Under the pieces are notes generated by a model. The model saw only the letters and a program-made list of their open reading frames with translations, was not told where the DNA came from and made no database searches. Shown here in pieces: positions 2,139 through 18,697 of a stretch of 32,000 nt of DNA (position 1 is its first letter; every line of letters begins with the position of its first letter). The DNA is from Alkanindiges illinoisensis DSM 15370. Lineage in GTDB: Bacteria; Pseudomonadota; Gammaproteobacteria; Pseudomonadales; Moraxellaceae. Position numbers and translations under genes: made by a program. The stretch spans positions 120,001 through 152,000 of the forward strand of contig NZ_JHUX01000004.1 in the NCBI RefSeq assembly GCF_000619845.1, in the 5' to 3' direction.

Positions 2139-3335
2139 TTGGAACACTCCAAGCCTATATTAGGATCTTTTCCAATGGTTAAGCCTTATCACGAAGCAGT
2201 GGATGGCAAGTTATTACTGGATCAAATTATTGAGAAGGTTAACTTGCATATTACCTGTGAACCACAAGTTGCTGTCGCAATTGCTCTATGGATTATGTTC
2301 ACTTGGTGTATTAATGCATTTGATATCGCACCAATTGCCTGCATTACCGCTCCTGAAAAACGCTGTGGTAAAAGCCAGCTTTTAACACTGATGAGTTTAA
2401 TGTCCAAAAATCCTTTAAACACATCCAATATTTCACCAGCAGGACTATTCCGAACTATCGATGCCTTTGCACCCACTTTATTTATTGATGAAGCAGATAC
2501 CTTTGTCGCTGGTAATAATGAGTTACGAGGAATTTTAAACAGTGGCCAAGACAGGGCTAATGCCTATGTGATCCGCTTGGTCGGTGAAAAATTTGAACCT
2601 AGGCGGTTTTGTACTTTTGGTGCCAAGGCTATTGCAGGCATTGGACAGTTACCCAGTACTCTAAAAGACCGCTCTATTACTTTAGAACTCAGGCGACAGT
2701 ATAAGGACGAGGTACGCCAGCGCTTACGGCATACTGACAAGGCAGAGTTTGCGCTAATGAGTAGGATGCTGATGCGCTGGGCACAGGACAACATGGAAGC
2801 ACTTGCAATCGCACGTCCAGTTTTACCTGATGTATTAAATCATCGGGCACAGGATAATTGGGAACCGTTATTTGCGATTGCTGATCAAGCTGGTGGGCAC
2901 TGGCCAGAAACGGCACGACAGGCTGCTATTACTATCTCTGGTATTGATGAGGAATCACAAAGTATCAATGAACAGCTATTAAGTGATCTTCGGGATATTT
3001 TCCAAACCTTCCCTTTGGAGCGCTGGAGTACCAAAGCGCTACTACAGCAATTATGTGCCAATGAAGAAACACCTTGGCATGCATGGAACAAAGGTAAACC
3101 AATGACAGCTTATCAACTAGCCCATCAGTTGAAGCCCTTCAAAATCCGGCCAAAACAAATCAGAGTTGGTAGCGAAACATGTAAAGGTTACGAGGCTGAA
3201 GATTTTAAAACTACTTTTGAGCGTTACCTGTCAAAGTGTGAGCCTCCTTCCCTAACTTTACCCGAAACAGGGAAACACGAGCCTAACGGCATTGCCTTGG
3301 CGATGTTAGAATATTTTAATACCATCCAATCATAA
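2139..3335 (+). CDS. DUF3631-type P-loop protein (island replication/helicase-loader-like)
   Basis: Walker A-like APEKRCGKS and Walker B LFIDEAD. C-terminal motifs KDRSITLELRR, DNWEPLFAIADQAGGHWPETAR and CKGYEAEDFKTTFERY match my recollection of DUF3631. The ORF opens at TTG 2139; ATG 2175 is an alternative start. Confidence 0.65.
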   Translation: MEHSKPILGSFPMVKPYHEAVDGKLLLDQIIEKVNLHITCEPQVAVAIALWIMFTWCINAFDIAPIACITAPEKRCGKSQLLTLMSLMSKNPLNTSNISPAGLFRTIDAFAPTLFIDEADTFVAGNNELRGILNSGQDRANAYVIRLVGEKFEPRRFCTFGAKAIAGIGQLPSTLKDRSITLELRRQYKDEVRQRLRHTDKAEFALMSRMLMRWAQDNMEALAIARPVLPDVLNHRAQDNWEPLFAIADQAGGHWPETARQAAITISGIDEESQSINEQLLSDLRDIFQTFPLERWSTKALLQQLCANEETPWHAWNKGKPMTAYQLAHQLKPFKIRPKQIRVGSETCKGYEAEDFKTTFERYLSKCEPPSLTLPETGKHEPNGIALAMLEYFNTIQS

Positions 3336-5852: not shown

Positions 5853-6665
5853 ATGGTCTGGCTCATCATTCTGTTTATTGTTGGCATCATCATTGAGATA
5901 TGCAAGCAAAACGATAACAACTCAACATCTGACAGTGTGCCAAAAATTGGTAATGGACAAGAACAGCATAATGCTGCTAACGAAGCACAGCACAACTCAT
6001 TTAAGAACCTTTATCCCTTTATTGATCTGTATACCTACTATGCCCTAGAGGGCAAGCGGTCTTGGACACCTGAAAAAATCCAGTTCATTAAAACAGTGCT
6101 TAGCCCATTAAATGATGCTGAAAAGATATTGCTTCGGGATCGGCTAAAGCATGTACCTAACGTAAGCCTGAGTATCCTGATTGATGGGGTAAAACAGGCA
6201 GTCAGCAATAATCCGGCAGCACGTCCTGAAATTACTTATGTAATAGCAAGGATGCTGGTTATTGACCAAACCCCTCACCCAAGCATTGAACGCAAGATTA
6301 ATGATTTAGGACATTCCTTTGGCTTATCTAATGATGAGATTGGCAGGATTATCAGTACAGCCATTCATGCCAGTGAAGAATCCTATCAATCTGGGGAATC
6401 ACAGCAGGAACACCAAGGCTATGAGCAACAAACCACAACGAACTCTGCCACTGAATGGGCATGTGAAATCCTAGGGCTATCACAGGCAGAGATTAGCACA
6501 GCACGTATCCAACAAGCCTACCGCCAGAAGATGCGGGAATATCACCCTGATAAGCACCAAGGCTTGCCAGAAGCCATCCAGAAGCTCCTGCATGAAAAGA
6601 CACAGGACGTCAATAAGGCTAAGGACATATTACTCAAGCTAGCCAATAACAAAATGAGTGCTTAA
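5853..6665 (+). CDS. djlA: Membrane-anchored DjlA-like J-domain co-chaperone
   Basis: N-terminal TM helix (VWLIILFIVGIIIEI), a central TerB/DjlA-N-like region, a Q-rich linker, and a C-terminal J domain with an intact HPD (AYRQKMREYHPDKHQGLPEAIQKLLHEKTQDVNKA). This closely parallels the E. coli DjlA J domain. SD aagggg. Confidence 0.75.
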   Translation: MVWLIILFIVGIIIEICKQNDNNSTSDSVPKIGNGQEQHNAANEAQHNSFKNLYPFIDLYTYYALEGKRSWTPEKIQFIKTVLSPLNDAEKILLRDRLKHVPNVSLSILIDGVKQAVSNNPAARPEITYVIARMLVIDQTPHPSIERKINDLGHSFGLSNDEIGRIISTAIHASEESYQSGESQQEHQGYEQQTTTNSATEWACEILGLSQAEISTARIQQAYRQKMREYHPDKHQGLPEAIQKLLHEKTQDVNKAKDILLKLANNKMSA

Positions 6666-6676
6666 GGAAGATTACG

Positions 6677-7114
6677 ATGCTAAGAACACTATTACTACTA
6701 CTGGTTGCTGTGGGTGGGCCAGTCGGCTTGGTCACTTATATTATGCTTCACGGTAGGATTCAAAAAGCCAAGCTAGCGCTATCCTCAGAAGATCATTACA
6801 GCAGGCTAAAGACACCTGCATCCTCGACACTTAGCTACCAAAGCCAAAGCACAAGTCGCACTTTGCAGCCAGTGCCGAGTAGTGATCATAAGCAACAGGA
6901 TACCCGATCCATTGAATGGGCTTGCCAAGTGCTAGGGCTAACAATGGAAGGACTAACGCCAGAGACGATTGAAAAAGCCTACAATCGAAAGATGGAAGCG
7001 TATCAGGCCAGCGATCAACAGAATCTACCTGAATCGATTCAGCAGCTATTGCATGAAAAGATTCAGGAGGTAAAAGAGGCTAAAAAAGTTTTATCAGAGG
7101 GTAATAAAATTTGA
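6677..7114 (+). CDS. Membrane-anchored J-like protein lacking the HPD motif (paralog of the DjlA-like C-terminus)
   Basis: N-terminal TM helix. The C-terminus IEWACQVLGL...AYNRKMEAYQASDQQNLPESIQQLLHEKIQEVKEAKKVL aligns with the upstream gene's J domain, but HPD is replaced by QAS-D. SD aaggaag. Confidence 0.65.
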   Translation: MLRTLLLLLVAVGGPVGLVTYIMLHGRIQKAKLALSSEDHYSRLKTPASSTLSYQSQSTSRTLQPVPSSDHKQQDTRSIEWACQVLGLTMEGLTPETIEKAYNRKMEAYQASDQQNLPESIQQLLHEKIQEVKEAKKVLSEGNKI

Positions 7115-7116
7115 AT

Positions 7117-9840
7117 TTAATATTCAAAAGGAATCATTCTTTTATATCTTGTCTTTAATGCATCGACCCCACCTTCCATTATTGAGCATACCAAATCCCT
7201 AACAGCTTTCTCTTGTAACGCACCACTAGCTTCAATTTGAATTAGACCTTTATTTTGTAAAGCTATTACATTTTCAGAGTCGGAGTTGACTACTATATTT
7301 GGATTATGTGTTACAAGAATAACCTGCCTTTTGGTTTTTGATTCTTTTAGCTGTTTAACAATTAATCTAGTAATTAGAGAGTTATCTAGATCATCTTCTG
7401 GTTGATCTAGAATTAATGGCTCATTACCATAATTCAATAATAAGCTCAGTATCGTTGCTGATTTTTGACCTGCCGATCCTTCAGCAATATTTCTAAAATT
7501 ATTTCCATTAGTTCTAAAATCAATTTTGATATCATCGTGTGGAAACCATCCGAGGATGCTTTCAATTACTTCAGAGGAAGAATTTATTTTCATTAGGTGA
7601 TCGAATAATCTTTTCTCAATCTTTTCTTTTATAACACTAGCTATTGGGTTTGATAATATCTCCATTTTAAATTCTGATATTATTTTATGACATTCTTCAA
7701 TGTCATAATTTTTGTTCTTAAAATCATTTTCCAAATTAAATAAAATGCCTTTTTGCTCATCGGAGTCATAAATACTACTTGAAAAATAGTCTCCTGTTTT
7801 TTGTATACATGCTCTAAAACCATTTTCATTAATTTTACCAAAAGGAATTATAGTAACTCTAATTTCATCATTGCTAGAAAAATAATTACTTATAAATTCT
7901 TTTCTACGTTTGGTTAGATTCATCCTATTTTCTATCAATTTACCATATATAGCTTTTAATTCGATTTTATTATTTATTAATTCACTCTCATATATACTAA
8001 TATTCTCCAAATTTTTATCAATAATTTCTATGCTATTCACTAATTTCTGATGACTTTGAAAGTCAATACCTACATCTTTGAGTTGATCTAAAGTTATTTT
8101 ATAATCTTCAATAGCTCTATCTATCCTCTTATAATCATCTATTTGAAGAATTTTTTCCTCAAAATCCGTAAAAAGATTACTCAGTTCCTGAGTTTTAATA
8201 ACTAAATTATTTTTAATATCAGCAACTAGATTTAAAATTGAATTAATTTCATTATTTGCATATGTTTCATCTATTTGATTAGATATTTCTGAGTAATTAT
8301 CTGTAAATTTTGTTAGTTCCAATATTTTCTCTGAAACACTATTTTTAAAATCCTTAAATTTATTTTTTTGTATTAAGGCATTTTTATAGTCTTGTGCTAT
8401 TTTTTCATTTAAGGGATTTTCAATAAGGCTTAACTTATTAATTAAGTCTTTCCTCTCACCTAATAGCTGATTTTTAAAACCTATCTCAGAAACTAAATAA
8501 TTTTTACGATTCAAACTATGTTTTAAATCCCTAATTATTTCATTTGATTCTCTATTAAGACTATTAATATCTACTATGAGTGATTGATCAATCATATTAA
8601 ATAAAAAAGAAGGATTCTTGGAAAGTTCAAATATCTGCTTTTGGCTATAAATACTGATTGGAAATCTTTGATGAATTTCCCCAAATTCTTCCTCTAAGAT
8701 ATTAAATTCATTGTCAATTTTATATATATTATGTTTTTGATTATCAGCAGACCATACAATTTTATATTTTAAATTATCTTTTTCATAAATACATGAAATA
8801 ACACTTTTTTCTAAGAACATACCAGAATCTTCACGAGATTTTGAAATCTTTTTAAATAATTCAAAGGTTCTTTTAATTTCATGTAAATCTTTAGTATCTA
8901 AAATTTCTTTATCCTTTGATAATACTATCCTTATAAATTCCACTAAAGAAGATTTACCTGCACCTCTACCACCAATTATTGAATTTAGCCAAGGACTAAT
9001 ATTTATAGTAAGTCCACTAGAGCGTCCTGCATACTTACAATCCTTAATATCTATAGATTGTATTAATAGTTTAGATTTTTCATCATTTGGATTAATGCTT
9101 GTTGTCTCCTTCCTTTTAATAGAAGTATTTCCATCTATTAATGCAAGTTTTAGACCCTCAATAGTTGGAGCACCCATTTTGACCCAAGTAAATGCCCTAC
9201 CAACCTCTCTGGGCATATGAGCATCACTACCTATTACATTTGGCAAGTTGCTTATATGTGAATATTTATTTTTAAAATCATTATTCCATAATGAAAATTT
9301 TTCTGGAAAAACGACTTCTACAGCTAAAACCGCTTGTATCAATTGTTTGTATGAACTCATTGATTGCATCAGAAAAGCTCCTGCTGCAAGATCAACATGA
9401 GCTGGAATAGCAATCCCTCCAGCTTGATGAATTGCATGTACAACTTCAATTGCACTTTTAGTGCAGGGTATATCTATTTGATTTGGTTTAGCTCCTACCG
9501 CTCCAATTAAACTAGAAATTTCTTCTTGGGAGCAGCTTGGATCAAATATTGCAAGTATATGAACATTCGAGTTTGCTGTTATTTCCATACCAGGAAATAT
9601 AGAAATATTTTTACCTTCATTTTTTAATAATTCAGCCTCTTTTTTTAGGCTATCTATCCATGTTGCAGTGTTATGGTCTGTTACAGCTACGCACTCTATC
9701 CCTTCATCTATAAATTTCATTAGCCAATCACGAGGGTTAATCGTTTTTGGATCAAATTGAGCTTTAGCATAATCACTTGATGCAGGTGTATGTGTATGAA
9801 AATCAAATTTCCACCATCTTGCTCCAGTAGTATTAATCAT
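7117..9840 (-). CDS. PHP-domain + SMC/ABC-like coiled-coil ATPase (single-gene anti-phage candidate, Ppl-like architecture)
   Basis: N-terminal PHP motifs (WWKFDFHTHTPASSDY, VAVTDHNT, IPAHV, GSDAHMP). Walker A GGRGAGKSS, a long N/K/I/E-rich helical region, a signature-like GSAGQKSA, Walker B LILDQPEDDLD and VILVTHNPN. SD aagggga. Confidence 0.8.
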   Translation of the reverse strand: MINTTGARWWKFDFHTHTPASSDYAKAQFDPKTINPRDWLMKFIDEGIECVAVTDHNTATWIDSLKKEAELLKNEGKNISIFPGMEITANSNVHILAIFDPSCSQEEISSLIGAVGAKPNQIDIPCTKSAIEVVHAIHQAGGIAIPAHVDLAAGAFLMQSMSSYKQLIQAVLAVEVVFPEKFSLWNNDFKNKYSHISNLPNVIGSDAHMPREVGRAFTWVKMGAPTIEGLKLALIDGNTSIKRKETTSINPNDEKSKLLIQSIDIKDCKYAGRSSGLTINISPWLNSIIGGRGAGKSSLVEFIRIVLSKDKEILDTKDLHEIKRTFELFKKISKSREDSGMFLEKSVISCIYEKDNLKYKIVWSADNQKHNIYKIDNEFNILEEEFGEIHQRFPISIYSQKQIFELSKNPSFLFNMIDQSLIVDINSLNRESNEIIRDLKHSLNRKNYLVSEIGFKNQLLGERKDLINKLSLIENPLNEKIAQDYKNALIQKNKFKDFKNSVSEKILELTKFTDNYSEISNQIDETYANNEINSILNLVADIKNNLVIKTQELSNLFTDFEEKILQIDDYKRIDRAIEDYKITLDQLKDVGIDFQSHQKLVNSIEIIDKNLENISIYESELINNKIELKAIYGKLIENRMNLTKRRKEFISNYFSSNDEIRVTIIPFGKINENGFRACIQKTGDYFSSSIYDSDEQKGILFNLENDFKNKNYDIEECHKIISEFKMEILSNPIASVIKEKIEKRLFDHLMKINSSSEVIESILGWFPHDDIKIDFRTNGNNFRNIAEGSAGQKSATILSLLLNYGNEPLILDQPEDDLDNSLITRLIVKQLKESKTKRQVILVTHNPNIVVNSDSENVIALQNKGLIQIEASGALQEKAVRDLVCSIMEGGVDALKTRYKRMIPFEY

Positions 9841-9919: not shown

Positions 9920-10222
9920 TCAAAGTTTTATAACTTCTGGCTTATGCTTGTTTAGAGATTGGTTTTCATTGTCAGCTAACTTATCCCTATAATCAGCCCA
10001 CCGTCCACACGTTGCACTAGGATAGTACTATGTTATAGAAACTAGCCACACCGCCTTTACATGCGCTAGGGCGGCTTCTAAATATTTCTCATTAAGTGTT
10101 TTACTGGCAACTTTCCTAAAGCTATGTGGTATTTATTGGCCTTTATACCCTAAGCGTATTAAGATATCAGAGACAAAAGGGCTTTTAGTATTGTACTTCT
10201 GGCTCAGGAACAGATAAGGCGA
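9920..10222 (-). pseudogene. Tyrosine-integrase 3' remnant (paralog of the int at 16893-18119), with in-frame stops
   Basis: Nucleotide similarity to 16893-17220. Translation gives PYLF.S....SP..SD.LIRLGYKGQ*IPHSFRKVASKTL..., parallel to SPYLFPSRS...RRLGYEGRQSPHGFRHIASTTL. It is truncated at 10222. Confidence 0.75.
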
Positions 10223-10600
10223 ATGATAGGTGAGCCTGTTGGCTTAGTGGCATACATCACGATTCACACTAAGACTGAACAAGCCAAACTATCACGCTCA
10301 TCAGAAGATCATTATAGCAGGCTAAAGTTACCTGCATTATCGATGCTTAGCTATCAAAACCAAAATACAAGCTTCAGTGTGCAATTAGTTCCAAGTAATG
10401 AACATACTCATGCCTATCTATTGAATAGGTTTGTGAAGTCTTAGGGCTGCCAATGGATTAATTAACCAAAGAGACGATTAAAAAAGCCTCTAATCGCAAG
10501 ATAGAAGCGCATCAGGCCAGCGATCACCAAAATCCATTCGAGAGTTATTGGAGCAAAAGATTTAGGAAGTTAATGAGGCGAAGAACATTTTCACTTTCTC
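10223..10600 (+). pseudogene. Decayed second copy of the HPD-less J-like gene
   Basis: Colinear with 6710-7100 at the nucleotide level. It lacks the first ~11 codons and carries several stops and frameshifts (e.g. TAG at 10442). It still encodes ...AHQASDHQN..., i.e. it is also HPD-less. Confidence 0.8.
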
Positions 10601-10764: not shown

Positions 10765-12033
10765 ATGCAAACTAAATTATTCCCCAAAGCATCTTTTGAA
10801 ATAGAAGCCAAGCACACTACACACTCGGGTGGTAAAGGTGAATATTTACATGATTGGTATTCATATTTAGAAGGTTTTTCATCATCATTTGTATATGAAA
10901 TTTTAAAAACTTATGCTCCTGATGCTGAAATCGTTCTGGAACCTTTTGCTGGAGTTGGAACGACTCCAGTGAATAGCTCGATTTTAGGTTGCACATCTTA
11001 TTATTGTGAAATTAACCCTGTTTTAAGAAAAGTTGTCGCAATTAAGCAAAAAATTCTTAACCTTTCAGATAGTAAAAAATCAGAATTTTTATTAGATATC
11101 AATGAGCTAGGGAATAATTTAAATCATTATTTACAGAATGTAAGACCATCAGAAGAACTAAGGAAAAAATATTACGATTGTTTTGATAAGAGTATTTTCT
11201 TTTCTCAAGATACTTTTGAGCAAGTACTAAAATTTAGATCCTTAGTGGATCAGATTGCATTAAAAGATGAACTTTTAGCTGAAGCTTTAGAGGTAGCCAT
11301 ACTATCTTGTTTAGTAACTTGTTCCTTATTAAAAAGATCAGGAGATGTACGTTTTAAAACTCCAAAAGAATTATCTAAAGGTGTACCTTTATTACTACCT
11401 TCAGTATTAAAGCAACTAAAGCTGATGATGGATGATTGTAGAAATTGTCCTCAAGCATTAGCTCCAATAAACTTATTGGCAAATAATTCAAAAGAAGTTT
11501 TAGATATCGAAAGTATCCAAGCTGATATTGTTATCACAAGCCCTCCTTACTTAAATGGTACTAATTATTTTCGAAATACAAAGCTCGAACTTTGGTTTAT
11601 TGGAGAGCTTTTAAACAATAAGAGTCTTCGTATTTTTAGAGATCAGGTTGTGACATCTGGAATAAATGATGTCACTAAAGATAAAGGGAAAGATATTTTA
11701 CCTTTGGTATCTGATTTATATGCTGAATTATTAGAAAAAGCTTATGACGCTAGAATTGCTAAGATGATGTCAGCATATTTTTATGAAATGAAAATAGTGC
11801 TAGAAGGATTGAAACACCATACGAAACTTAATGGTGTTATATGCATTGATATTGGAGATAGTGTCTATGCAAATGTGTATATTCCTACACACATAATTTT
11901 GACGGAAATCGCGAAAGATTTAGGTTTTTCATTATATGAAGAAATTTTATTAAGGAAAAGATATTCCAATGGTGGAGCTGAGTTAGGTCAGTATTTATTG
12001 GTATTAAAGAAGATGGATAGTGAAGAAAAATGA
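10765..12033 (+). CDS. DNA amino-methyltransferase 1 (SPPY catalytic motif; N4-C or N6-A)
   Basis: AdoMet motif I EPFAGVGTT sits near the N-terminus and catalytic motif IV ITSPPYLNG ~190 aa later (an alpha-type motif order). The stop overlaps the next gene (ATGA). Confidence 0.8.
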   Translation: MQTKLFPKASFEIEAKHTTHSGGKGEYLHDWYSYLEGFSSSFVYEILKTYAPDAEIVLEPFAGVGTTPVNSSILGCTSYYCEINPVLRKVVAIKQKILNLSDSKKSEFLLDINELGNNLNHYLQNVRPSEELRKKYYDCFDKSIFFSQDTFEQVLKFRSLVDQIALKDELLAEALEVAILSCLVTCSLLKRSGDVRFKTPKELSKGVPLLLPSVLKQLKLMMDDCRNCPQALAPINLLANNSKEVLDIESIQADIVITSPPYLNGTNYFRNTKLELWFIGELLNNKSLRIFRDQVVTSGINDVTKDKGKDILPLVSDLYAELLEKAYDARIAKMMSAYFYEMKIVLEGLKHHTKLNGVICIDIGDSVYANVYIPTHIILTEIAKDLGFSLYEEILLRKRYSNGGAELGQYLLVLKKMDSEEK

Positions 12034-13181
12034 AATCTGCCAAACTCGCTGAAATTTTAGAAAAATGGGATAACTTTAAAACAACGTTTCCTCATATGGA
12101 GGAACCATTTTCAAAAAGAAATTGGGGATCTGATTTACACTCGGTTTGTTCTTATCAAGGAAAAATGAAACCAGCTTTGGCTTATCATTTAATTGATACC
12201 TTCTCGGTAAAAGGAGATATCGTCTTAGATCCATTTAGCGGATCAGGAACTATTCCATTCGAAGCCGCTATAAATGGTCGTTTTGCCTTTGGGTTAGATA
12301 TTGGTGTATTAGCTACTTCTCTCTCGAATGCGAAGTTAAAAAAGCATAATAAAGAAGAAGTACTTAAAATAATTGACATGTTAGATGATTTTATTCGTAA
12401 TAATACACCGCAAGATAAAAGCATATCGGACTCAATAGGAGTCGCTTTTAATAAAACTATTCCAGAATATTTTCATGAGGATACTTTTAAAGAAATTCTC
12501 TTAGCGAGGGAATTTTTTCTTAAACACAATGACCCAGAATCAGAGAATTGGTCATTAGTTTTCGCATGTATGCTACACATTTTACATGGTAATAGGCCTT
12601 ATGCTTTAAGTCGTAATAGTCATCCTATTACCCCTTATGCACCTACGGGTGAATTTATATATAAGAATGTAATTGAAAAGTTGACAAATAAAGTTAACAA
12701 ATCAATAGAGGCTCAAGAGTTATTAAATTTAACTTCATCTAAATGCTTTTTATCAGATATCCTTAGTAAATGGCCTGAAGAAATTCAAAAAGTCGATTCA
12801 ATTATTACATCTCCCCCTTTTTTCGATAGTACAAAATTCTATATGACGAACTGGATGAGGTATTGGTTTTGTGGATGGAATAAGAAAGATTTTCAAGAAA
12901 ATCCTAAATCTTTTGTAGAAGTGATGCAGAAAAAAAATTTTGATGTTTATGAGTTTATATTTAAAGAAAGTTATGAACGTTTAGTTGCTAATGGTATTGC
13001 AGTCTTTCACTTAGGTCATAGTGATAAATGTGATATGGCTAAATCATTAATTCCTTTTGCTGAAAGATACTTCGAGATTCTTGATGTTTTTACAGAGTCT
13101 GTTGAGCATTGTGAAAAACACGGGATCAAAGATAAAGGTAGCGTTAAAGGACACCAATATTTAGTCTTAATGAAAAAGTAA
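12030..13181 (+). CDS. DNA amino-methyltransferase 2 (SPPF catalytic motif; N4-C or N6-A)
   Basis: Motif I DPFSGSGTI and motif IV ITSPPFFDS, with the same layout as methyltransferase 1. Translationally coupled by ATGA at 12030-12033. Confidence 0.8.
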   Translation: MKSAKLAEILEKWDNFKTTFPHMEEPFSKRNWGSDLHSVCSYQGKMKPALAYHLIDTFSVKGDIVLDPFSGSGTIPFEAAINGRFAFGLDIGVLATSLSNAKLKKHNKEEVLKIIDMLDDFIRNNTPQDKSISDSIGVAFNKTIPEYFHEDTFKEILLAREFFLKHNDPESENWSLVFACMLHILHGNRPYALSRNSHPITPYAPTGEFIYKNVIEKLTNKVNKSIEAQELLNLTSSKCFLSDILSKWPEEIQKVDSIITSPPFFDSTKFYMTNWMRYWFCGWNKKDFQENPKSFVEVMQKKNFDVYEFIFKESYERLVANGIAVFHLGHSDKCDMAKSLIPFAERYFEILDVFTESVEHCEKHGIKDKGSVKGHQYLVLMKK

Positions 13182-13194
13182 ATTGATTTTTACA

Positions 13195-13227
13195 AAAGGC
13201 TATAATTTTTTGAAAATTATAGCCTTT
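13195..13227. terminator. Bidirectional hairpin terminator between the convergent methyltransferase and endonuclease genes
   Basis: Perfect 15-bp arms aaaggctataatttt / aaaattatagccttt with a 3-nt loop, flanked by A/T runs. Confidence 0.6.
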
Positions 13228-13236
13228 CTTAAAAAA

Positions 13237-14643
13237 TTAGCCTAGATTTCTGTAAAGTTTGAGAAGATCTATTTTTTTTCCAACATCTGTTTTGTTTAGT
13301 GTTTTCTGTAAAGCTTTTAATAATAAATCTGAAGTCAGCTTTCCATCGCGTACTTTCTGTAGTTCTGATTTTTGGCAAAAAGAATTAAATAACCAATCTA
13401 AATTTTCAATTAGACAATTTACCGCATTCAAGTTAGGACTTGGATTTTGAAGTTCATCAAGTGAAAGTCCTGTTATTCTTGATAATTCAGAAAGTTTTTC
13501 TTGTGAATAAAATTCAGAAGGCGCTCTGTCCCTTTTTTGTGAATTGCAGGAACCACAAAGACATGTTGCTGTCTCATCTAATGGCCATAAGAGAGCTAAA
13601 GGACGGGTATGATCTAAATGCATTTCTTTCGGAGATTTGAGGTCAATTGAACAATTAAAACATTTTTTGCCAAATTTTAACCATATGTCATCAGTTAACT
13701 CACGACCACCTGATTTCTCTCTATATATAAGTTGCGGGCTTTTGCCAAAAATCTCAGTTAGGAGTAATTCAAAAGCTCGTCTTCTTGCCCCATCCTCCTT
13801 CATTTGAGCAGCAGTACGCTGTGGATTGTGTGCAGCATTAACCTCATATTTTTTACAGAATCTACATTCCAACTGATAACCGTACTCTAATTGCATTATT
13901 TGATTTGTTTCAACGTTTCTTAGCTTCCCAAAACCAGCATGGGAACAAGGCCGCCTATGAACGGCAACACAATGATTTGAAAAACTTAAGTGATGTCTCT
14001 CGTTATTAATATTTATTGGAAGGAAGCGAGCACAACGATTGCAAGACTTTAAGTAGATATGTGCATTTGAAGTTTCAGTCGAGTCAAAGCTTAATTCGAT
14101 GCTGACATCACCTTCTACAGAATAGAAATTTGATTCTGGTGCAAATTGGTACATATTTTTCAATAGTACAGGCTTTTCCGATTTTGCCCATTCCAAGTGT
14201 TTATGTTTGACAATACCACAGCCAACTTCGTAAAGTGCTAGATATGAATCTTCAAGGGCTGTAAATCTAACTTGTGTTTGCTCAACATTCGTATAAGTAC
14301 TAGAAGTTCCCATTGAACCAAACTTTGACCAGTTATTATCTTCTGGGTCAGTATGAAGCTCCTTTACAAATCCCCCTTTAAAAACTTCGACCCTTATTTG
14401 GTCATTACATGAATACCATCCCCCAAATGCAACTATATCTCCAAGGTTATGGTCTGGAATTTGGAATGTTATAGTAATATTTTGCCCTTTAGGAATTAGT
14501 ATACTTTCAATATCTTCTATTTTAAGCTCGCCACCAGTTGAATCAGGATGGCTTTTAAATCCACTAGTTCTTGTAGTTGTTCTTCTACGGCCTGCAAATT
14601 CAGTTTTCCCCGGAAGTTTATTGCCAAAATTTACTTTTTCCAT
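13237..14643 (-). CDS. HNH (beta-beta-alpha-Me) endonuclease with four CxxC pairs, putative restriction endonuclease subunit 1
   Basis: HLDHTRPLALLWPLDETATCLCGSCNSQKRDR plus CNRC, CRFC, CFNC and CGSC. The ATG directly abuts the C-gene stop (TAAATG), the classic C-R operon arrangement. Confidence 0.7.
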   Translation of the reverse strand: MEKVNFGNKLPGKTEFAGRRRTTTRTSGFKSHPDSTGGELKIEDIESILIPKGQNITITFQIPDHNLGDIVAFGGWYSCNDQIRVEVFKGGFVKELHTDPEDNNWSKFGSMGTSSTYTNVEQTQVRFTALEDSYLALYEVGCGIVKHKHLEWAKSEKPVLLKNMYQFAPESNFYSVEGDVSIELSFDSTETSNAHIYLKSCNRCARFLPININNERHHLSFSNHCVAVHRRPCSHAGFGKLRNVETNQIMQLEYGYQLECRFCKKYEVNAAHNPQRTAAQMKEDGARRRAFELLLTEIFGKSPQLIYREKSGGRELTDDIWLKFGKKCFNCSIDLKSPKEMHLDHTRPLALLWPLDETATCLCGSCNSQKRDRAPSEFYSQEKLSELSRITGLSLDELQNPSPNLNAVNCLIENLDWLFNSFCQKSELQKVRDGKLTSDLLLKALQKTLNKTDVGKKIDLLKLYRNLG

Positions 14644-14859
14644 TTACATTCCCTCAAAAAGCTGAGATAAATTTTTGTCTAATGCCTTAGCAATGGAATT
14701 CAAAGCCCTCAAAGAGATATTTCTCTTTCCTGTTTCAACGCCACTTACGTAAGTTCGATCTAGACATGCTTTATCAGCTAAAGCCTCTTGAGATAGCCCA
14801 TAATTTTTTCTGAGAATTTTAAGGTGGTTACCAAAAGCTCTAAGGAGTTCTTCTTCCAT
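14644..14859 (-). CDS. Controller (C) protein of a restriction-modification system, XRE-type HTH
   Basis: The 71-aa sequence LSQEALADKACLDRTYVSGVETGKRNISLRAL strongly resembles C.PvuII/C.AhdI-type controller proteins. It lies immediately upstream of the endonuclease. Confidence 0.8.
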   Translation of the reverse strand: MEEELLRAFGNHLKILRKNYGLSQEALADKACLDRTYVSGVETGKRNISLRALNSIAKALDKNLSQLFEGM

Positions 14860-14903
14860 GGCAGAAGCTGTCCAATTTTTTACTTAATCTTATGATAGTT
14901 TTT

Positions 14904-14935
14904 GTAGACTATGAGCCCACGTACTATGAGTCACA
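14904..14935 (-). promoter_or_regulatory. C-box operator pair upstream of the C gene
   Basis: tgtaGACTATGAGCccacgTACTATGAGTCaca holds two ACTATGAG(T/C) boxes (14907-14916 and 14922-14932), resembling GACT-N3-AGTC C-boxes. Confidence 0.55.
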
Positions 14936-15045
14936 TACATGTCAAATAAATATTTATTTTATTGAATAAGAATAGATACATATCTTCAAATTTTTTGCAT
15001 CATCTGGAAGTAGATAAATTGAATCTTCTCTCCACTTTCATCAAT

Positions 15046-16395
15046 TTATTTTTTTACATCTTGATAAAGTTGCAATAAGTTATAATTCTTTCCATATTCA
15101 GTTTCATCTAATGTCCTTTGTAAGGAAGTAAGAAATATTTCAGCAGTAATTTTTCCATCTCTATCTTTTTGTAAAGTATTGCTAAAACAGAAATCTGATA
15201 TTAGCCACTCTATATTATCTAATATCAACTTTACTGCTTCTAGGTTTACTTTAGCATGGGTTAAATCTGAAATAGACAATCCAATAATAGATGATAATTC
15301 TTCTATTTCTTCTGGTAGATAATATTCAGATGGTAACTTATTACTTTTTTGAGAATTACAAATTTCACATAAGCATGTGGCTGTTTCATCTAACGGCCAT
15401 AATAATGATAAAGGTCTTGTATGATCTAAATGCATATCTTTGGGATTATTTAGTTCAATATCGCACTTAAAACATCTTTTATTAAATTTAATCCAAGTAT
15501 CTGTAGCTAATCCACCATACCGATGTTTATTTTTATAACTTAACAGATGGCTTTTTTTATATAATTCAGTCAATAAGGACTCCATAGCACGTCTTCTTGC
15601 TGAATCTTCTCTTAACTGATCAATCGTACGTTGCTTATTTAGTGGTATATTTACAAATAGCTTTTTACAAATCCTGCATTCTAATTGATATCCATATTTT
15701 AGAGACAGAGCATCGTCACATTCTTCATGTTTTAAAGTGTTAAATCGTTTATGATTAGAAAAACTTAAGTGACTTTTTTCATTATTAATATTTATTGGTA
15801 AAAAACGCGCACAACGATTACAAGATTTTAAATACAAATCTATTTTTTTTTCTAACATATTGGCTGCTTGATTATAGACAATAATTTTCCCTTTATTTTG
15901 GTAAAAATTCCCTTCTGGAGCATATGTATGAATATTATCTAATTGTTTTTCAACATATGCGTCATTTCGAACTCTTTCAATTTCCTCATGATAAACTGTA
16001 CCACAATCAATATTATGAAAAGCTATATTAGTATCTTCTAATGCAGTAAAAGTTATTGAGGTGGTTGGAACATTATTTGTTGTATCAGAAACTCCTATAG
16101 AACCAAATTTAGACCAATTTAGCGGTTGATAAATTATCAATATAGTGTCTACAAACCCTCCTTTTTGTATATGTACTTTTATATTTTTATCACAAAAAAA
16201 CCATCCTCCAAATGCTACAAGATCTCCAATATTATGAGGTGGTATTAAAAACTCAATTTTAATGGACTGATTTTTATTAAGAAAAAAACTATCTTTTTTT
16301 TCTATTTTATAATTTCGCCCAGTACTGTCTGGATGGGTGCTATAACCAGATGTTTTTGTGGGCTGTCTTCTCTTAGGTAATAAAATATCATTCAT
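15046..16395 (-). CDS. Paralogous HNH endonuclease, putative restriction endonuclease subunit 2
   Basis: 449 aa, colinear with the 468-aa protein over its full length. It shares SG..SHPDSTG, GD.VAFGGW, NWSKFGS, YLKSCNRCARFLPININNE, YGYQLECR.CKK and HLDHTRPLSLLWPLDETATCLCEICNSQK. Confidence 0.7.
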   Translation of the reverse strand: MNDILLPKRRQPTKTSGYSTHPDSTGRNYKIEKKDSFFLNKNQSIKIEFLIPPHNIGDLVAFGGWFFCDKNIKVHIQKGGFVDTILIIYQPLNWSKFGSIGVSDTTNNVPTTSITFTALEDTNIAFHNIDCGTVYHEEIERVRNDAYVEKQLDNIHTYAPEGNFYQNKGKIIVYNQAANMLEKKIDLYLKSCNRCARFLPININNEKSHLSFSNHKRFNTLKHEECDDALSLKYGYQLECRICKKLFVNIPLNKQRTIDQLREDSARRRAMESLLTELYKKSHLLSYKNKHRYGGLATDTWIKFNKRCFKCDIELNNPKDMHLDHTRPLSLLWPLDETATCLCEICNSQKSNKLPSEYYLPEEIEELSSIIGLSISDLTHAKVNLEAVKLILDNIEWLISDFCFSNTLQKDRDGKITAEIFLTSLQRTLDETEYGKNYNLLQLYQDVKK

Positions 16396-16608
16396 TACAT
16401 AGCCTTAAATAGATCGAATAAATTTTTTCTAGGACTTTAGCAATGCAATTAGGAGCTTTTAAAGAGATATTTCTTTTTCCTGCTTCAACGCCACTCACGT
16501 AAGCTCGACCTAGACATGCTTTATTAATAAAGCATCTTGAGATAGGCCATAATCTTTTCCGAGAGTTTTAAAATGGCTTCTAAAGTTCTTTAGGAGTTCT
16601 TTTTCCAT
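16396..16608 (-). pseudogene. Frameshifted copy of the C (controller) gene
   Basis: Nucleotide-colinear with 14644-14859. A 1-nt deletion (gctttagctgataaagca becomes gctttattaataaagca) gives MEKELLKNFRSHFKTLGKDYGLSQDALLIKHV*. Confidence 0.75.
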
Positions 16609-16892
16609 TGCAGAAGCTATTCATTTGTGTAACTATTGTTATAGTAATTTATGTGGCTTATACATCCACGGACTATGAGTAACAAAATGGTTTATCGGAA
16701 AGTCAGTAGTTATTCCATACAATTTCTAGAAAGCTTACAAGAAAATTACATGTAACGGTATTTTCTGATTTTAAAAGAATTTTATTATCAACTGCTTAAT
16801 TTTAAGTTTTCAAGGACACTACCTTCCCTTTAACATTCTGGAATTAAAACTCATAGATTAGCTATAAGTTTTAATTTGATTAAAAATAAGCT

Positions 16893-18119
16893 TTAAGCTT
16901 TTTTAAAAACAATAACTTCATCATTAGCTAAACTATCCAGATAATCAGCCCACCATTGCATCATAGGCTTACGATCATTCAGGTAAGCTGCTTTATTGTA
17001 TACTCCTTCTACCCCACCAGTGACATGGGCTAAAGCACTTTCTACATGATCACGGTTAAAACCTTTTTCCCTTAATGTCGTGCTGGCAATGTGCCTAAAG
17101 CCATGTGGCGACTGTCTCCCTTCATAGCCTAATCGTCTAAGTGCCATAATAAAGACTGTATCTGATTTTGGACTATTGTTACTACTACGGCTAGGGAATA
17201 AATAAGGACTATCACTACTATACGCCTTAAGCTCTTTTAATAGCTCTACTGCTTGTGTCGGTAAAGGAATGATATGTTCACGCCGCTTTTTCATGCGCTC
17301 TGCGGGAATTGTCCATTCGGCTGCTTGAAGATTAACCTCTTTCCATAAAGCTGTTCTAAGCTCACTGGGACGGCAAAACAGCATAGCTAATAGCTGTAAC
17401 CCTATACTTACATCACGAGTTGGATAGTTTCTAATTGCTCTTAATAATGCTGGCAATTCATTTGCAGAAACATGCTTCATATTTTCTGATTTAGCTGTTT
17501 CCAAGAACCTGTGTAAGCCTTCTAATGGGTTAAACTCAATCCGGCCAGTCACTTTAGCAAGATCATAAATTTCCTGGCACAAAGCACGCATGCGATTAGA
17601 CTGCTCAATGATCCCCTTCTCTCGCTGGATACTCTTAAACAGATTCATCCATTCAATAGGTTTAATTTCCTTATATGCACGCTTACCCATAACAGGAAAA
17701 ATATGTTTTTCTAAAGCGCCCTTATTGCGCTTCATTGTACCTTCAGTCCATTTATTGACTTTTCCATCCAGCCACTCTACCGCTAGCTTTTCGAAGGTAC
17801 TGTTAGTTGCTTCTAATTCTTGCTGCTTTTTTTCTTGTTTAGTAATAATAGGATCTTCACCCTTCGATAGGGCTTTATTTAATTCTTGCGCTGTTTTACG
17901 TGCAAGTTCGCCAGATACCGCTGGATATGTTCCTATACCAACCCAAGACCATTTACCATCAGCTTTCTTATAGCGTAGTTGCCACGACTTATTGCCATTA
18001 GGTTTGATACGAAAATATAAGCCATTACCGTCTAACTCTCTATACTCCTTATCTTCCGGCTCTAATGTCTTAAGAGTTGTATCAGTCATTGGCCGTTTCT
18101 TAATATCATCGCGCTTCAT
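16893..18119 (-). CDS. int: P4-type tyrosine integrase
   Basis: N-terminal arm-binding-type domain (GLYFRIKPNGNKSWQLRYK). Catalytic region HGFRHIASTT ... VEGVYNKAAY. Strong SD aaggag. Adjacent to and co-oriented with ssrA. Confidence 0.9.
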   Translation of the reverse strand: MKRDDIKKRPMTDTTLKTLEPEDKEYRELDGNGLYFRIKPNGNKSWQLRYKKADGKWSWVGIGTYPAVSGELARKTAQELNKALSKGEDPIITKQEKKQQELEATNSTFEKLAVEWLDGKVNKWTEGTMKRNKGALEKHIFPVMGKRAYKEIKPIEWMNLFKSIQREKGIIEQSNRMRALCQEIYDLAKVTGRIEFNPLEGLHRFLETAKSENMKHVSANELPALLRAIRNYPTRDVSIGLQLLAMLFCRPSELRTALWKEVNLQAAEWTIPAERMKKRREHIIPLPTQAVELLKELKAYSSDSPYLFPSRSSNNSPKSDTVFIMALRRLGYEGRQSPHGFRHIASTTLREKGFNRDHVESALAHVTGGVEGVYNKAAYLNDRKPMMQWWADYLDSLANDEVIVFKKA

Positions 18120-18255: not shown

Positions 18256-18298
18256 AGGCATAAAAAAACCCTTAACCATTGCTAGTTAAGGGTTTTAG
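18256..18298. repeat. Proximal 43-bp direct repeat; contains the ssrA intrinsic terminator
   Basis: Identical to 762-804. On the minus strand it reads as the hairpin aacccttaac/gttaagggtt followed by a T7 run, 41 nt after the tmRNA CCA end. Confidence 0.9.
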
Positions 18299-18339
18299 TC
18301 TGATACATCATCATGTTGCAGTGTATCAATTTAGGTATA

Positions 18340-18697
18340 TGGTGGAGATGGCGGGATTTGAACCCGCGTCCGCCAGCACTACGCCCACGAATCTACATGC
18401 TTAGTTATCGTCTATTGCTTTAACCGCTAACAGCCCAACGAACAGGACGTTAGAAGCGATTCCCTAAGTTTGACACCATGTCACGGGACATTACACGGTG
18501 CGGATCTGTGTGCGTGCGCTTCGGTCGGCCTCACCAACCACAGATATTTGGTTCGGCGGACAAGCAGCCCTTAGGCTGCTAGAGCGTAAGTTTCGTCGTT
18601 TGCGACTATAAAAATGCAAGATTGATTTACGAGAGATAATGCGCTCTCGGCATGCATCATTGAGTTTCATCACCAGCGTCGAAGCCAGAACATCCCC
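18340..18697 (-). ncRNA. ssrA: tmRNA (transfer-messenger RNA)
   Basis: The minus strand starts GGGGATGTTCTGGCTTCGACG and ends GGTTCAAATCCCGCCATCTCCACCA. The tag ORF GCAAACGACGAAACTTACGCTCTAGCAGCCTAA encodes ANDETYALAA (18603-18571). Confidence 0.92.

Follow-up and report, generated by a model that had tools for sequence, protein, structure and literature searches.

Organization of the locus

The 32,000-nucleotide stretch of Alkanindiges illinoisensis DSM 15370 analysed here (contig NZ_JHUX01000004.1, positions 120,001 to 152,000, hereafter the window) carries a restriction-modification (R-M) locus in which two methyltransferase genes, M1 and M2, face two related endonuclease genes, R1 and R2, with a small controller gene, C, directly upstream of R1 (Table 1). 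A first-pass annotation of this DNA, made from its letters alone, had seen in the pairing of two methyltransferases with two similar nucleases the possible signature of a heterodimeric HNH restriction enzyme. The comparison of this locus with its relatives in other genomes bears directly on that idea and on the role of the second nuclease.

All the open reading frames (ORFs) listed in that annotation are present where it had placed them. M1 and M2, which are 24% identical to each other, are both called as N6_N4_Mtase by Pfam and as Type II methyltransferases by PADLOC (for M1, 2.4e-7 and, with MTase_II PDLC03389, 1.2e-53), while the C product matches Pfam HTH_3 (7e-15) and PADLOC Control_protein (1.6e-19). 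This match and the stop/start junction visible in the sequence bear out the earlier description of a controller fused to R1 through TAAATG. The hairpin that separates the convergent M2 and R1 genes has a predicted RNA folding energy of -18.8 kcal/mol (z = -4.2) and is likely to serve as a bidirectional terminator; a consensus terminator scan of the window did not flag it. One feature had been left out of the earlier description, namely the frameshifted remnant of a second controller gene (C') next to R2, the ATG of which is the very position (16608) at which that description ends.

Table 1. Features of the R-M locus and of the adjoining integration site in the window
Feature	Positions	Strand	Description
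M1	10765-12033	+	422 aa; motif I EPFAGVGT near N-terminus, motif IV TSPPY ~200 aa further
M2	12030-13181	+	383 aa; DPFSGSGT and TSPPF; 4-nt ATGA overlap with M1
Hairpin	13195-13227	.	Perfect 15-bp, AT-rich, between convergent M2 and R1
R1	13237-14643	-	468 aa; HNH/Zn-ribbon endonuclease
C	14644-14859	-	71 aa; helix-turn-helix (HTH) controller; stop abuts R1 ATG (TAAATG)
C-box	14904-14934	-	GTGACTCATAGTAC-GTGG-GCTCATAGTCTAC, upstream of C
R2	15046-16395	-	449 aa; intact ORF; R1 paralogue
C'	16388-16608	-	Frameshifted remnant of second controller, directly upstream of R2
Degenerate C-box	16653-16684	-	TGTTACTCATAGTCC-GTGG-ATGTATAAGCCAC, upstream of C'; left half recognizable, right half decayed
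Integrase	16893-18119	-	P4-type tyrosine integrase; Pfam Phage_integrase, Arm-DNA-bind_3 and Phage_int_M; NCBIfam PRK09692 1.3e-76
ssrA	18340-18697	-	tmRNA gene (ARAGORN); island integration target

Motif IV reads S-P-P-[YF] in N4-cytosine methyltransferases, rather than [DN]-P-P-[YFW]. Since TSPP[YF] (TSPPY or TSPPF) is invariant across all M1 and M2 homologues, as is an FxGxG motif, this established rule would assign both proteins to the N4-methylcytosine (m4C) type. M1 probably acts as an N4-cytosine methyltransferase on one strand of the target, and M2 probably modifies the opposite strand. The matches of M2 in the PDB are weak and include the cytosine-N4 methyltransferases 8s9n and 8s9m. 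In many relatives M1 and M2 are fused, and two of the loci compared below (L003 and L005) encode them as a single protein of 774-806 aa.

The two endonucleases

R1 and R2 align from end to end (49% identity over 451 aligned residues, E 8e-163), with a similarity well in excess of chance, and share both an HLDHTRP...CxxCN motif and four CxxC pairs, so that they are, as had been proposed, full-length paralogues with an intact HNH core. In R1 numbering, the arrangement C328xxC331...D344-H345...C363xxC366-N367 is invariant in 36 sequences. The AlphaFold2 (AF2) model of R1 (mean predicted local distance difference test score, pLDDT, of 87) has an N-terminal β-sandwich (residues ~30-145). A Zn-ribbon region (~190-265) and a long, basic hairpin of helices (261-323) lead to the HNH core (328-372), after which the C-terminal domain is helical. 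The model of R2 (pLDDT 85.9) has the same topology. A strand-strand-helix predicted at 342-370 fits a ββα-Me core, and the HNH part of R1 finds its best Foldseek match in the HNH domain of Cas9 (probability 0.82). Sequence motif and predicted ββα core together place these proteins among the HNH, or His-Me finger, nucleases. The Pfam HNH_5 match is weak (E 0.049, under the cut-off), and a Foldseek search of the PDB returned nothing under E 1e-3, with just carbohydrate-binding module (CBM)-like β-sandwiches and the Cas9 HNH domain and no match to the whole protein.

Two groups of distant relatives (P0204-P0225 and P0298-P0316, of ~330 aa and ~500 aa) match R1 only from ~190-250 to ~465-468, a region that consists of the Zn ribbon, helical hairpin, HNH core and C-terminal helices, and their N-termini differ. 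This implies a modular nuclease core on which N-terminal domains may be exchanged. Because the distant relatives share only residues ~190-468 and combine them with other N-termini, it also suggests that the N-terminal domain could carry or tune specificity.

R2 departs from the family pattern in several respects. It is without a conserved 11-aa H-C...P-C element and an N-terminal KLPGKT motif, and its clade has changed two residues that are invariant in the rest of the family, outgroups included, namely E315 (to G or S) and D372 (to N); the R2 of the window carries E315G and D372N. The 449-codon ORF is nevertheless intact in three lineages separated by synonymous divergences (dS) of 0.4-1.0. 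Estimated by the NG86 method between the three Moraxellaceae loci that have R2, the ratio of nonsynonymous to synonymous divergence (dN/dS) is 0.18-0.24 for R2, as compared with 0.07-0.15 for R1, ~0.11 for M1, ~0.07 for M2 and ~0.07 for C. By this measure R2 is under purifying selection, yet it appears about twice as relaxed as R1.

One nuclease for two methyltransferases

R1 belongs to a large family. Its relatives form 886 clusters at 90% identity, of ~465 aa and nearly all without annotation, and an exhaustive search of representatives at 50% identity found 86 at E <1e-30. M1, M2, R and C were mapped onto 58 genome loci and onto metagenome loci (all designated by L numbers), in hosts that range from Proteobacteria, Actinobacteria, Planctomycetes, Chloroflexi, Verrucomicrobia and Firmicutes to archaea. 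In ~55 of these loci, the unit consists of an R gene, with or without C, facing M2-M1, usually in a convergent arrangement and in a few cases co-directionally. M1 and M2 are both present at every locus, either separate or fused (~800 aa), and in all but a few loci a single R lies beside them. On the 6.4-kb Psychrobacter plasmid pA39BP3 (L072, NZ_MN657077.1), the only genes besides RepM and one small unnamed ORF are the canonical set, M1-M2 facing R-C; its R and M1 bear the annotation 'hypothetical protein'.

A nuclease gene adjoined by methyltransferases with motifs I and IV, in a synteny that is kept across unrelated hosts, is what characterizes Type II R-M. The locus family would thus be a Type II-like R-M family, in which cleavage is predicted to be blocked by methylation. 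The part of the first-pass annotation that had recognized a Type II-like, C-protein-controlled system with two amino-methyltransferases agrees with Pfam, PADLOC, the Control_protein match and synteny alike. The family is widespread and apparently without a characterized member: Pfam and NCBIfam yielded just the sub-threshold HNH_5 match and no PADLOC model for restriction endonucleases (REases) was matched; the PDB, searched by sequence and by profile, returned no relative of the endonucleases; no match turned up in annotated E. coli genomes or phages, and one, a 'hypothetical protein', among plasmids; and literature searches for a characterized member found none, REBASE not being among the sources covered.

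Since R faces M2-M1 with one R across the family, two methyltransferases appear to be the normal partners of a single endonuclease. Orthologues of R1 itself are the sole R in several loci, including L001 and L008. The latter, from Acinetobacter rudis, is particularly close to the window (C 87%, R1 89%, M2 94% and M1 93% identical). No trace of R2 homology was found upstream in this locus. Beyond the C-box, homology ends after ~140 nt and is as compatible with a loss of R2 in A. rudis as with a gain in the other loci. Because in A. rudis an 89% identical R1 accompanies 93-94% identical methyltransferases without R2, R1 is evidently the principal and self-sufficient nuclease. In a further, metagenomic group of loci (L066-L068), methyltransferases that are 92% (M1) and 89% (M2) identical to those of the window, in both cases evenly along their length, together with a C that is 80% identical, have as their sole R a protein (P0051) with 52% identity to R1 and 48% to R2.

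These findings weigh on the proposal of a heterodimer or hetero-oligomer of R1 and R2, with one strand of an asymmetric site cut by each HNH subunit as in Type IIT enzymes, or, in a weaker form, of an R2 that has become an R1-dependent partner within the Moraxellaceae clade. The proposal has points in its favour, because the two are full-length paralogues that have kept their catalytic motifs, because R2 has never been seen without R1, because identical C-boxes stand before both cassettes in two of the loci (L006 and L010), which points to co-regulation, and because the loss of conserved elements from R2 under continued purifying selection is what would be expected of a partner-dependent subunit. 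However, more than 50 loci have two methyltransferases with one R, R1 evidently suffices beside the ~93% identical methyltransferases of A. rudis, and the subunits of BbvCI-type enzymes are co-conserved across relatives, whereas nearly all relatives of the window locus have one R, the R1-R2 pairing is confined to three close loci and the nearest outgroups of R2 (such as those of L066 and L069) are sole R genes. A Type IIT enzyme of this kind therefore seems quite improbable. The step from two methyltransferases and two nucleases to a BbvCI-like heterodimer, on which the first-pass annotation had been built, is thus at odds with the single R beside the methyltransferase pair in ~55 loci, with the A. 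rudis locus and with the use of the same methyltransferase pair by a third, sole R.

The nuclease and methyltransferase sides of the locus have, in addition, diverged to different extents. Between the window and L006, L008 and L010, dS is 0.67-0.74 on the C/R1 side, about twice as high as on the M1/M2 side (0.24-0.36), while in L001 an R1 that is 84% identical to that of the window is found with an M1 and M2 that are 62% and 72% identical. This indicates that the locus is probably a mosaic, the two halves of which differ in history.

Origin of the second endonuclease cassette

Besides the window, which is identical to L007 and whose R2 matches a protein of Alkanindiges illinoisensis at 100% identity, a metagenome contig (L006) and Acinetobacter baretiae (L010) have two full-length R genes. 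In all three, C'-R2 lies upstream of C-R1, facing M2-M1, and the R2 clade consists of three clusters, each of which, when seen in context, lies in tandem with C-R1. In a neighbour-joining tree, the R2 clade is supported by a bootstrap value of 100 and is not nested in the R1 clade; its grouping with P0051, P0126 and similar proteins, all of them sole R proteins from canonical systems, is weak (bootstrap 51-64). That R2 arose recently as an in-place duplicate of R1 was considered and rejected, as R2 falls outside the R1 clade and groups weakly with sole-R lineages. For the same reason, the most plausible reading of R2 is a C-R cassette that came from a sister system and would have been stacked onto the resident one without its own methyltransferases: the island around the locus contains a single M1-M2 pair, with no further methyltransferase beside R2.

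This last point has consequences for specificity. That R2 recognizes a sequence other than that of R1, so that two independent specificities are combined, might be supposed from the fact that the two proteins are only 49% identical, N-terminal domain included. Yet a single methyltransferase pair would have to protect both sites, and an active R2 without protection would be lethal. Moreover, one methyltransferase pair (~90% identity) accompanies three R lineages that differ by ~50%, and the third of these, equally diverged, goes with the same methyltransferases, which makes such divergence compatible with one specificity. As a resident nuclease must be blocked by methylation, we infer that all three R lineages should recognize the same site. 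Two independent specificities consequently appear very improbable. Of the alternative put forward in the first-pass annotation, two specificities stacked through duplication, the stacking is therefore retained, while a second, independent specificity is unlikely with just one pair of methyltransferases.

Tandem or partial R genes also occur in unrelated hosts. In Burkholderia ubonensis (L005 8001-10980, LPDW01000074.1), two tandem R genes, with products of 469 and 488 aa that share 79% identity, come after a single C and stand opposite a fused M1-M2 of 774 aa. Identity between the two R genes is 98-100% over the first 450 nt and 54-91% over the remainder, except that it drops to 40% in one gapped stretch of 90 columns; ahead of the second R copy, the final bases of the C gene occur again. 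This tandem looks like an intermediate of recombination or gene conversion. In the haloarchaeon Natronococcus roseus (L055 9028-12002), a C-terminal half-R comes after a complete R beside the methyltransferases, and in a metagenome-assembled genome of Methanobacteriota (L049 2105-5280) M2 and M1 are separated by a complete R, with a fragment of R beyond M2. The fragments in these two loci look like relics of R turnover. The independent tandem and partial copies in L005 and L055 show that R cassettes are subject to turnover within the family, and the comparisons as a whole point to a turnover of endonuclease cassettes against a stable methyltransferase module.

Controllers, C-boxes and the expression of R2

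An HTH controller upstream of R and a conserved bipartite operator box are both present, as in C-controlled Type II R-M systems. The C-box of the window, which we take to resemble the PvuII-type C-box, is kept upstream of C in L006, L008 and L010 and is found again upstream of C' in L006 and L010; it is against these intact boxes that the box upstream of C' in the window was judged to be degenerate. C is intact everywhere, unlike C'. In the window, C' (83% nucleotide identity to C over 105 nt) has suffered a 1-nt deletion that leaves ORF fragments at 16608-16510 and 16498-16388. In L010 it carries an independent frameshift (+1, as opposed to -1 in the window), and in L006 it is an open ORF of 66 aa that lacks 5 residues and has a changed C-terminal tail. 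The simplest reading is that one C protein would now serve both cassettes, the distal one in trans.

The decay of C' raises the possibility that R2 is itself, in this genome, a relic of cassette replacement or recombination, poorly or not expressed and heading for loss. This would be in accord with the frameshift in C' and the degenerate C-box in the window, with the evolution of R2 at about twice the rate of R1 and its many changes at conserved sites, with the absence of R2 from A. rudis, and with the truncated R beside the methyltransferases of Natronococcus, which shows that such relics exist. It is difficult to reconcile with an ORF that has stayed intact in three lineages (dS 0.4-1.0) at a dN/dS of ~0.2, with the retention of the HNH core and of the four CxxC pairs and with a confident AF2 model of R2, and a promoter-like site is present on the R2 strand at 16813-16784. 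On balance, we consider it unlikely that R2 is such a relic.

A genomic island at ssrA

The R-M genes lie next to a P4-type integrase gene, which adjoins ssrA, and the 3' end of ssrA forms part of a 108-nt direct repeat (762-869 and 18256-18363) that is imperfect (80%). Since the integrase adjoins the tmRNA gene and the repeat includes its 3' end, the R-M genes are, on this evidence, cargo of an island of ~17.5 kb inserted at the 3' end of ssrA. The earlier view of the locus as horizontally acquired cargo is in keeping with this integrase beside ssrA and with an island bounded by an imperfect direct repeat. That the locus would be the most AT-rich part of the island is incorrect, however, as the R-M genes have a GC content of 28-37%, as compared with 24-29% for a gene of the Ppl/TrlF type at 7117-9840 (minus strand), the most AT-rich gene of the island.

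The product of this gene (907 aa) combines a PHP domain with an SMC/ABC-like ATPase and matches the NCBIfam model for anti-phage Ppl at 7e-172, short of the 1000-bit cut-off of that model, and the TrlF family at 546 bits, which exceeds the 350-bit cut-off there. Degenerate direct repeats (74-80%) at 6713-7083 and 10229-10582 flank it, one copy of which overlaps a 145-aa ORF (6677-7114) while the other is a broken remnant, and a stretch of 38 nt at 9965-10002 (82% identity to 16917-16954) is what remains of an integrase 3' end. Because of these flanking repeats and of the integrase remnant, the arrangement suggests that defence modules may have accreted in a nested or tandem fashion. Other genes of the island encode an HTH_3 protein (969-1505), a DUF3631 protein (2139-3335, 4e-47) and a protein that ends in a DnaJ domain (5853-6665).

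A model for the system

Taken together, we think it probable that the locus encodes one C-controlled Type II R-M system onto which an accessory endonuclease cassette of the same or an overlapping specificity has been stacked, two R genes with a single methyltransferase set being what is found in the window, L006 and L010. In such a system, each strand of an asymmetric target would be methylated by one of the two enzymes, M1 or M2, and C would bind the C-box to delay R expression upon entry into a new host and to limit it afterwards. R, with one HNH centre (D344, H345 and N367) framed by a Cys4 zinc site, would recognize the unmethylated site and cut both strands, either in two rounds by a monomer or through a transient homodimer, modes of action reported for other asymmetric-site HNH enzymes. 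The R lineages would be exchangeable against one methyltransferase pair, with R1 and R2 recognizing the same protected site. R2 may have been gained by cassette stacking or by recombination at the conserved C/C-box sequences, and its own controller would have become redundant and be decaying, so that R2 would depend for its expression on an upstream promoter or on C in trans. To judge by the related loci that lack it, R2 is dispensable for the function of the system. By cutting the same site, it could provide redundancy, for instance against inhibitors or mutations that disable one of the nucleases, although this benefit is speculative.

Several observations count against this explanation. The R2 clade shows 16 clade-specific replacements at positions at least 93% conserved, as against 0-4 in seven control clades. 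Among these changes are the loss of the H-C...P-C element and of the KLPGKT motif and the replacement of the acidic residues E315 and D372, a pattern that fits a changed or dependent function equally as well as redundancy. The decayed C-box and C' make the expression of R2 in the window uncertain. R2-type genes have never been found without R1, even if this concerns only three related loci. Finally, no enzyme of the family with a known site was present in the resources searched, so that the asymmetric site, the m4C chemistry and the shared specificity are inferences. A scenario that draws on the clade-specific losses and on the constant company of R1 is that in this Moraxellaceae clade R2, once a stand-alone isoschizomer, became dedicated to R1 as its partner, the two forming a hetero-oligomeric HNH enzyme that would divide the labour on an asymmetric site; we find this distinctly unlikely.

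The main outcome of the comparative data is thus negative, in that they do not show a first HNH heterodimeric restriction enzyme. Were R1 and R2 to form a hetero-oligomer after all, it would be the first Type IIT enzyme of the HNH type and a natural source of strand-specific nickases. The combination of β-sandwich, Zn ribbon and HNH core with two m4C-type methyltransferases may represent an uncharacterized family of restriction enzymes with a new DNA-recognition fold, and the family could yield a new asymmetric-site enzyme as well as a new DNA-recognition domain. Two nuclease genes behind duplicated C-boxes, with one working controller, offer a testable model for C-protein regulation in trans. 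A stable methyltransferase module that goes with three R lineages, along with tandem or partial R genes in three unrelated hosts, points to cassette turnover in this family.

Comparison with known systems

Among the known systems closest to the window are the HNH Type IIS/IIA systems (MnlI, HpyAV/Hin4II, Eco31I, HphI and MboII/HpyAII), in which one nuclease, often with CxxC zinc sites, is accompanied by two methyltransferases, separate or fused, and an asymmetric site is recognized (PMC4081073; HpyAV, PMC2816704; HpyAII, PMC7494987). As in systems of the MnlI, HpyAV, Eco31I, HphI and MboII type, the unit to which the window locus belongs has one HNH nuclease for two methyltransferases. However, the sequence and whole fold of the window R show no detectable similarity to any solved or modelled REase in the PDB, in PADLOC or by Foldseek, these HNH enzymes included, the N-terminal β-sandwich and the helical C-terminal domain being without a match. 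M1 and M2 both have SPP[YF] with motif I ahead of motif IV.

In BbvCI and Bpu10I, the two subunits are PD-(D/E)XK nucleases and both are required (PMC4081073). These systems have the same gene count as the window, two methyltransferases with two related R, and an asymmetric site, which is presumed in the window. They differ in that the second R of the window is absent from almost all relatives, a near-identical system included, and in that each related R lineage occurs alone with the methyltransferases.

The closest precedent may be SsuDAT1I of Streptococcus suis, a DpnII-type system that reportedly has two methyltransferases and two isoschizomeric endonucleases. It combines two related endonuclease genes with one methyltransferase set, as proposed for the window, although the nucleases are said to belong to another family, the target is the palindromic GATC and the rationale for having two methyltransferases is another one. 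In the window, in addition, each R would have arrived together with a controller gene, that of R2 having since decayed, and R1 and R2 would share their specificity.

As for regulation, a small HTH controller that abuts or overlaps R and a bipartite inverted-repeat C-box with half sites of the GACTCATAGT type are common to the window and to the PvuII, BamHI, Esp1396I and AhdI types of system. In contrast to these, the window has two tandem cassettes, each made up of C-box, C and R, and it is the distal controller that is degraded or altered in all three known loci.

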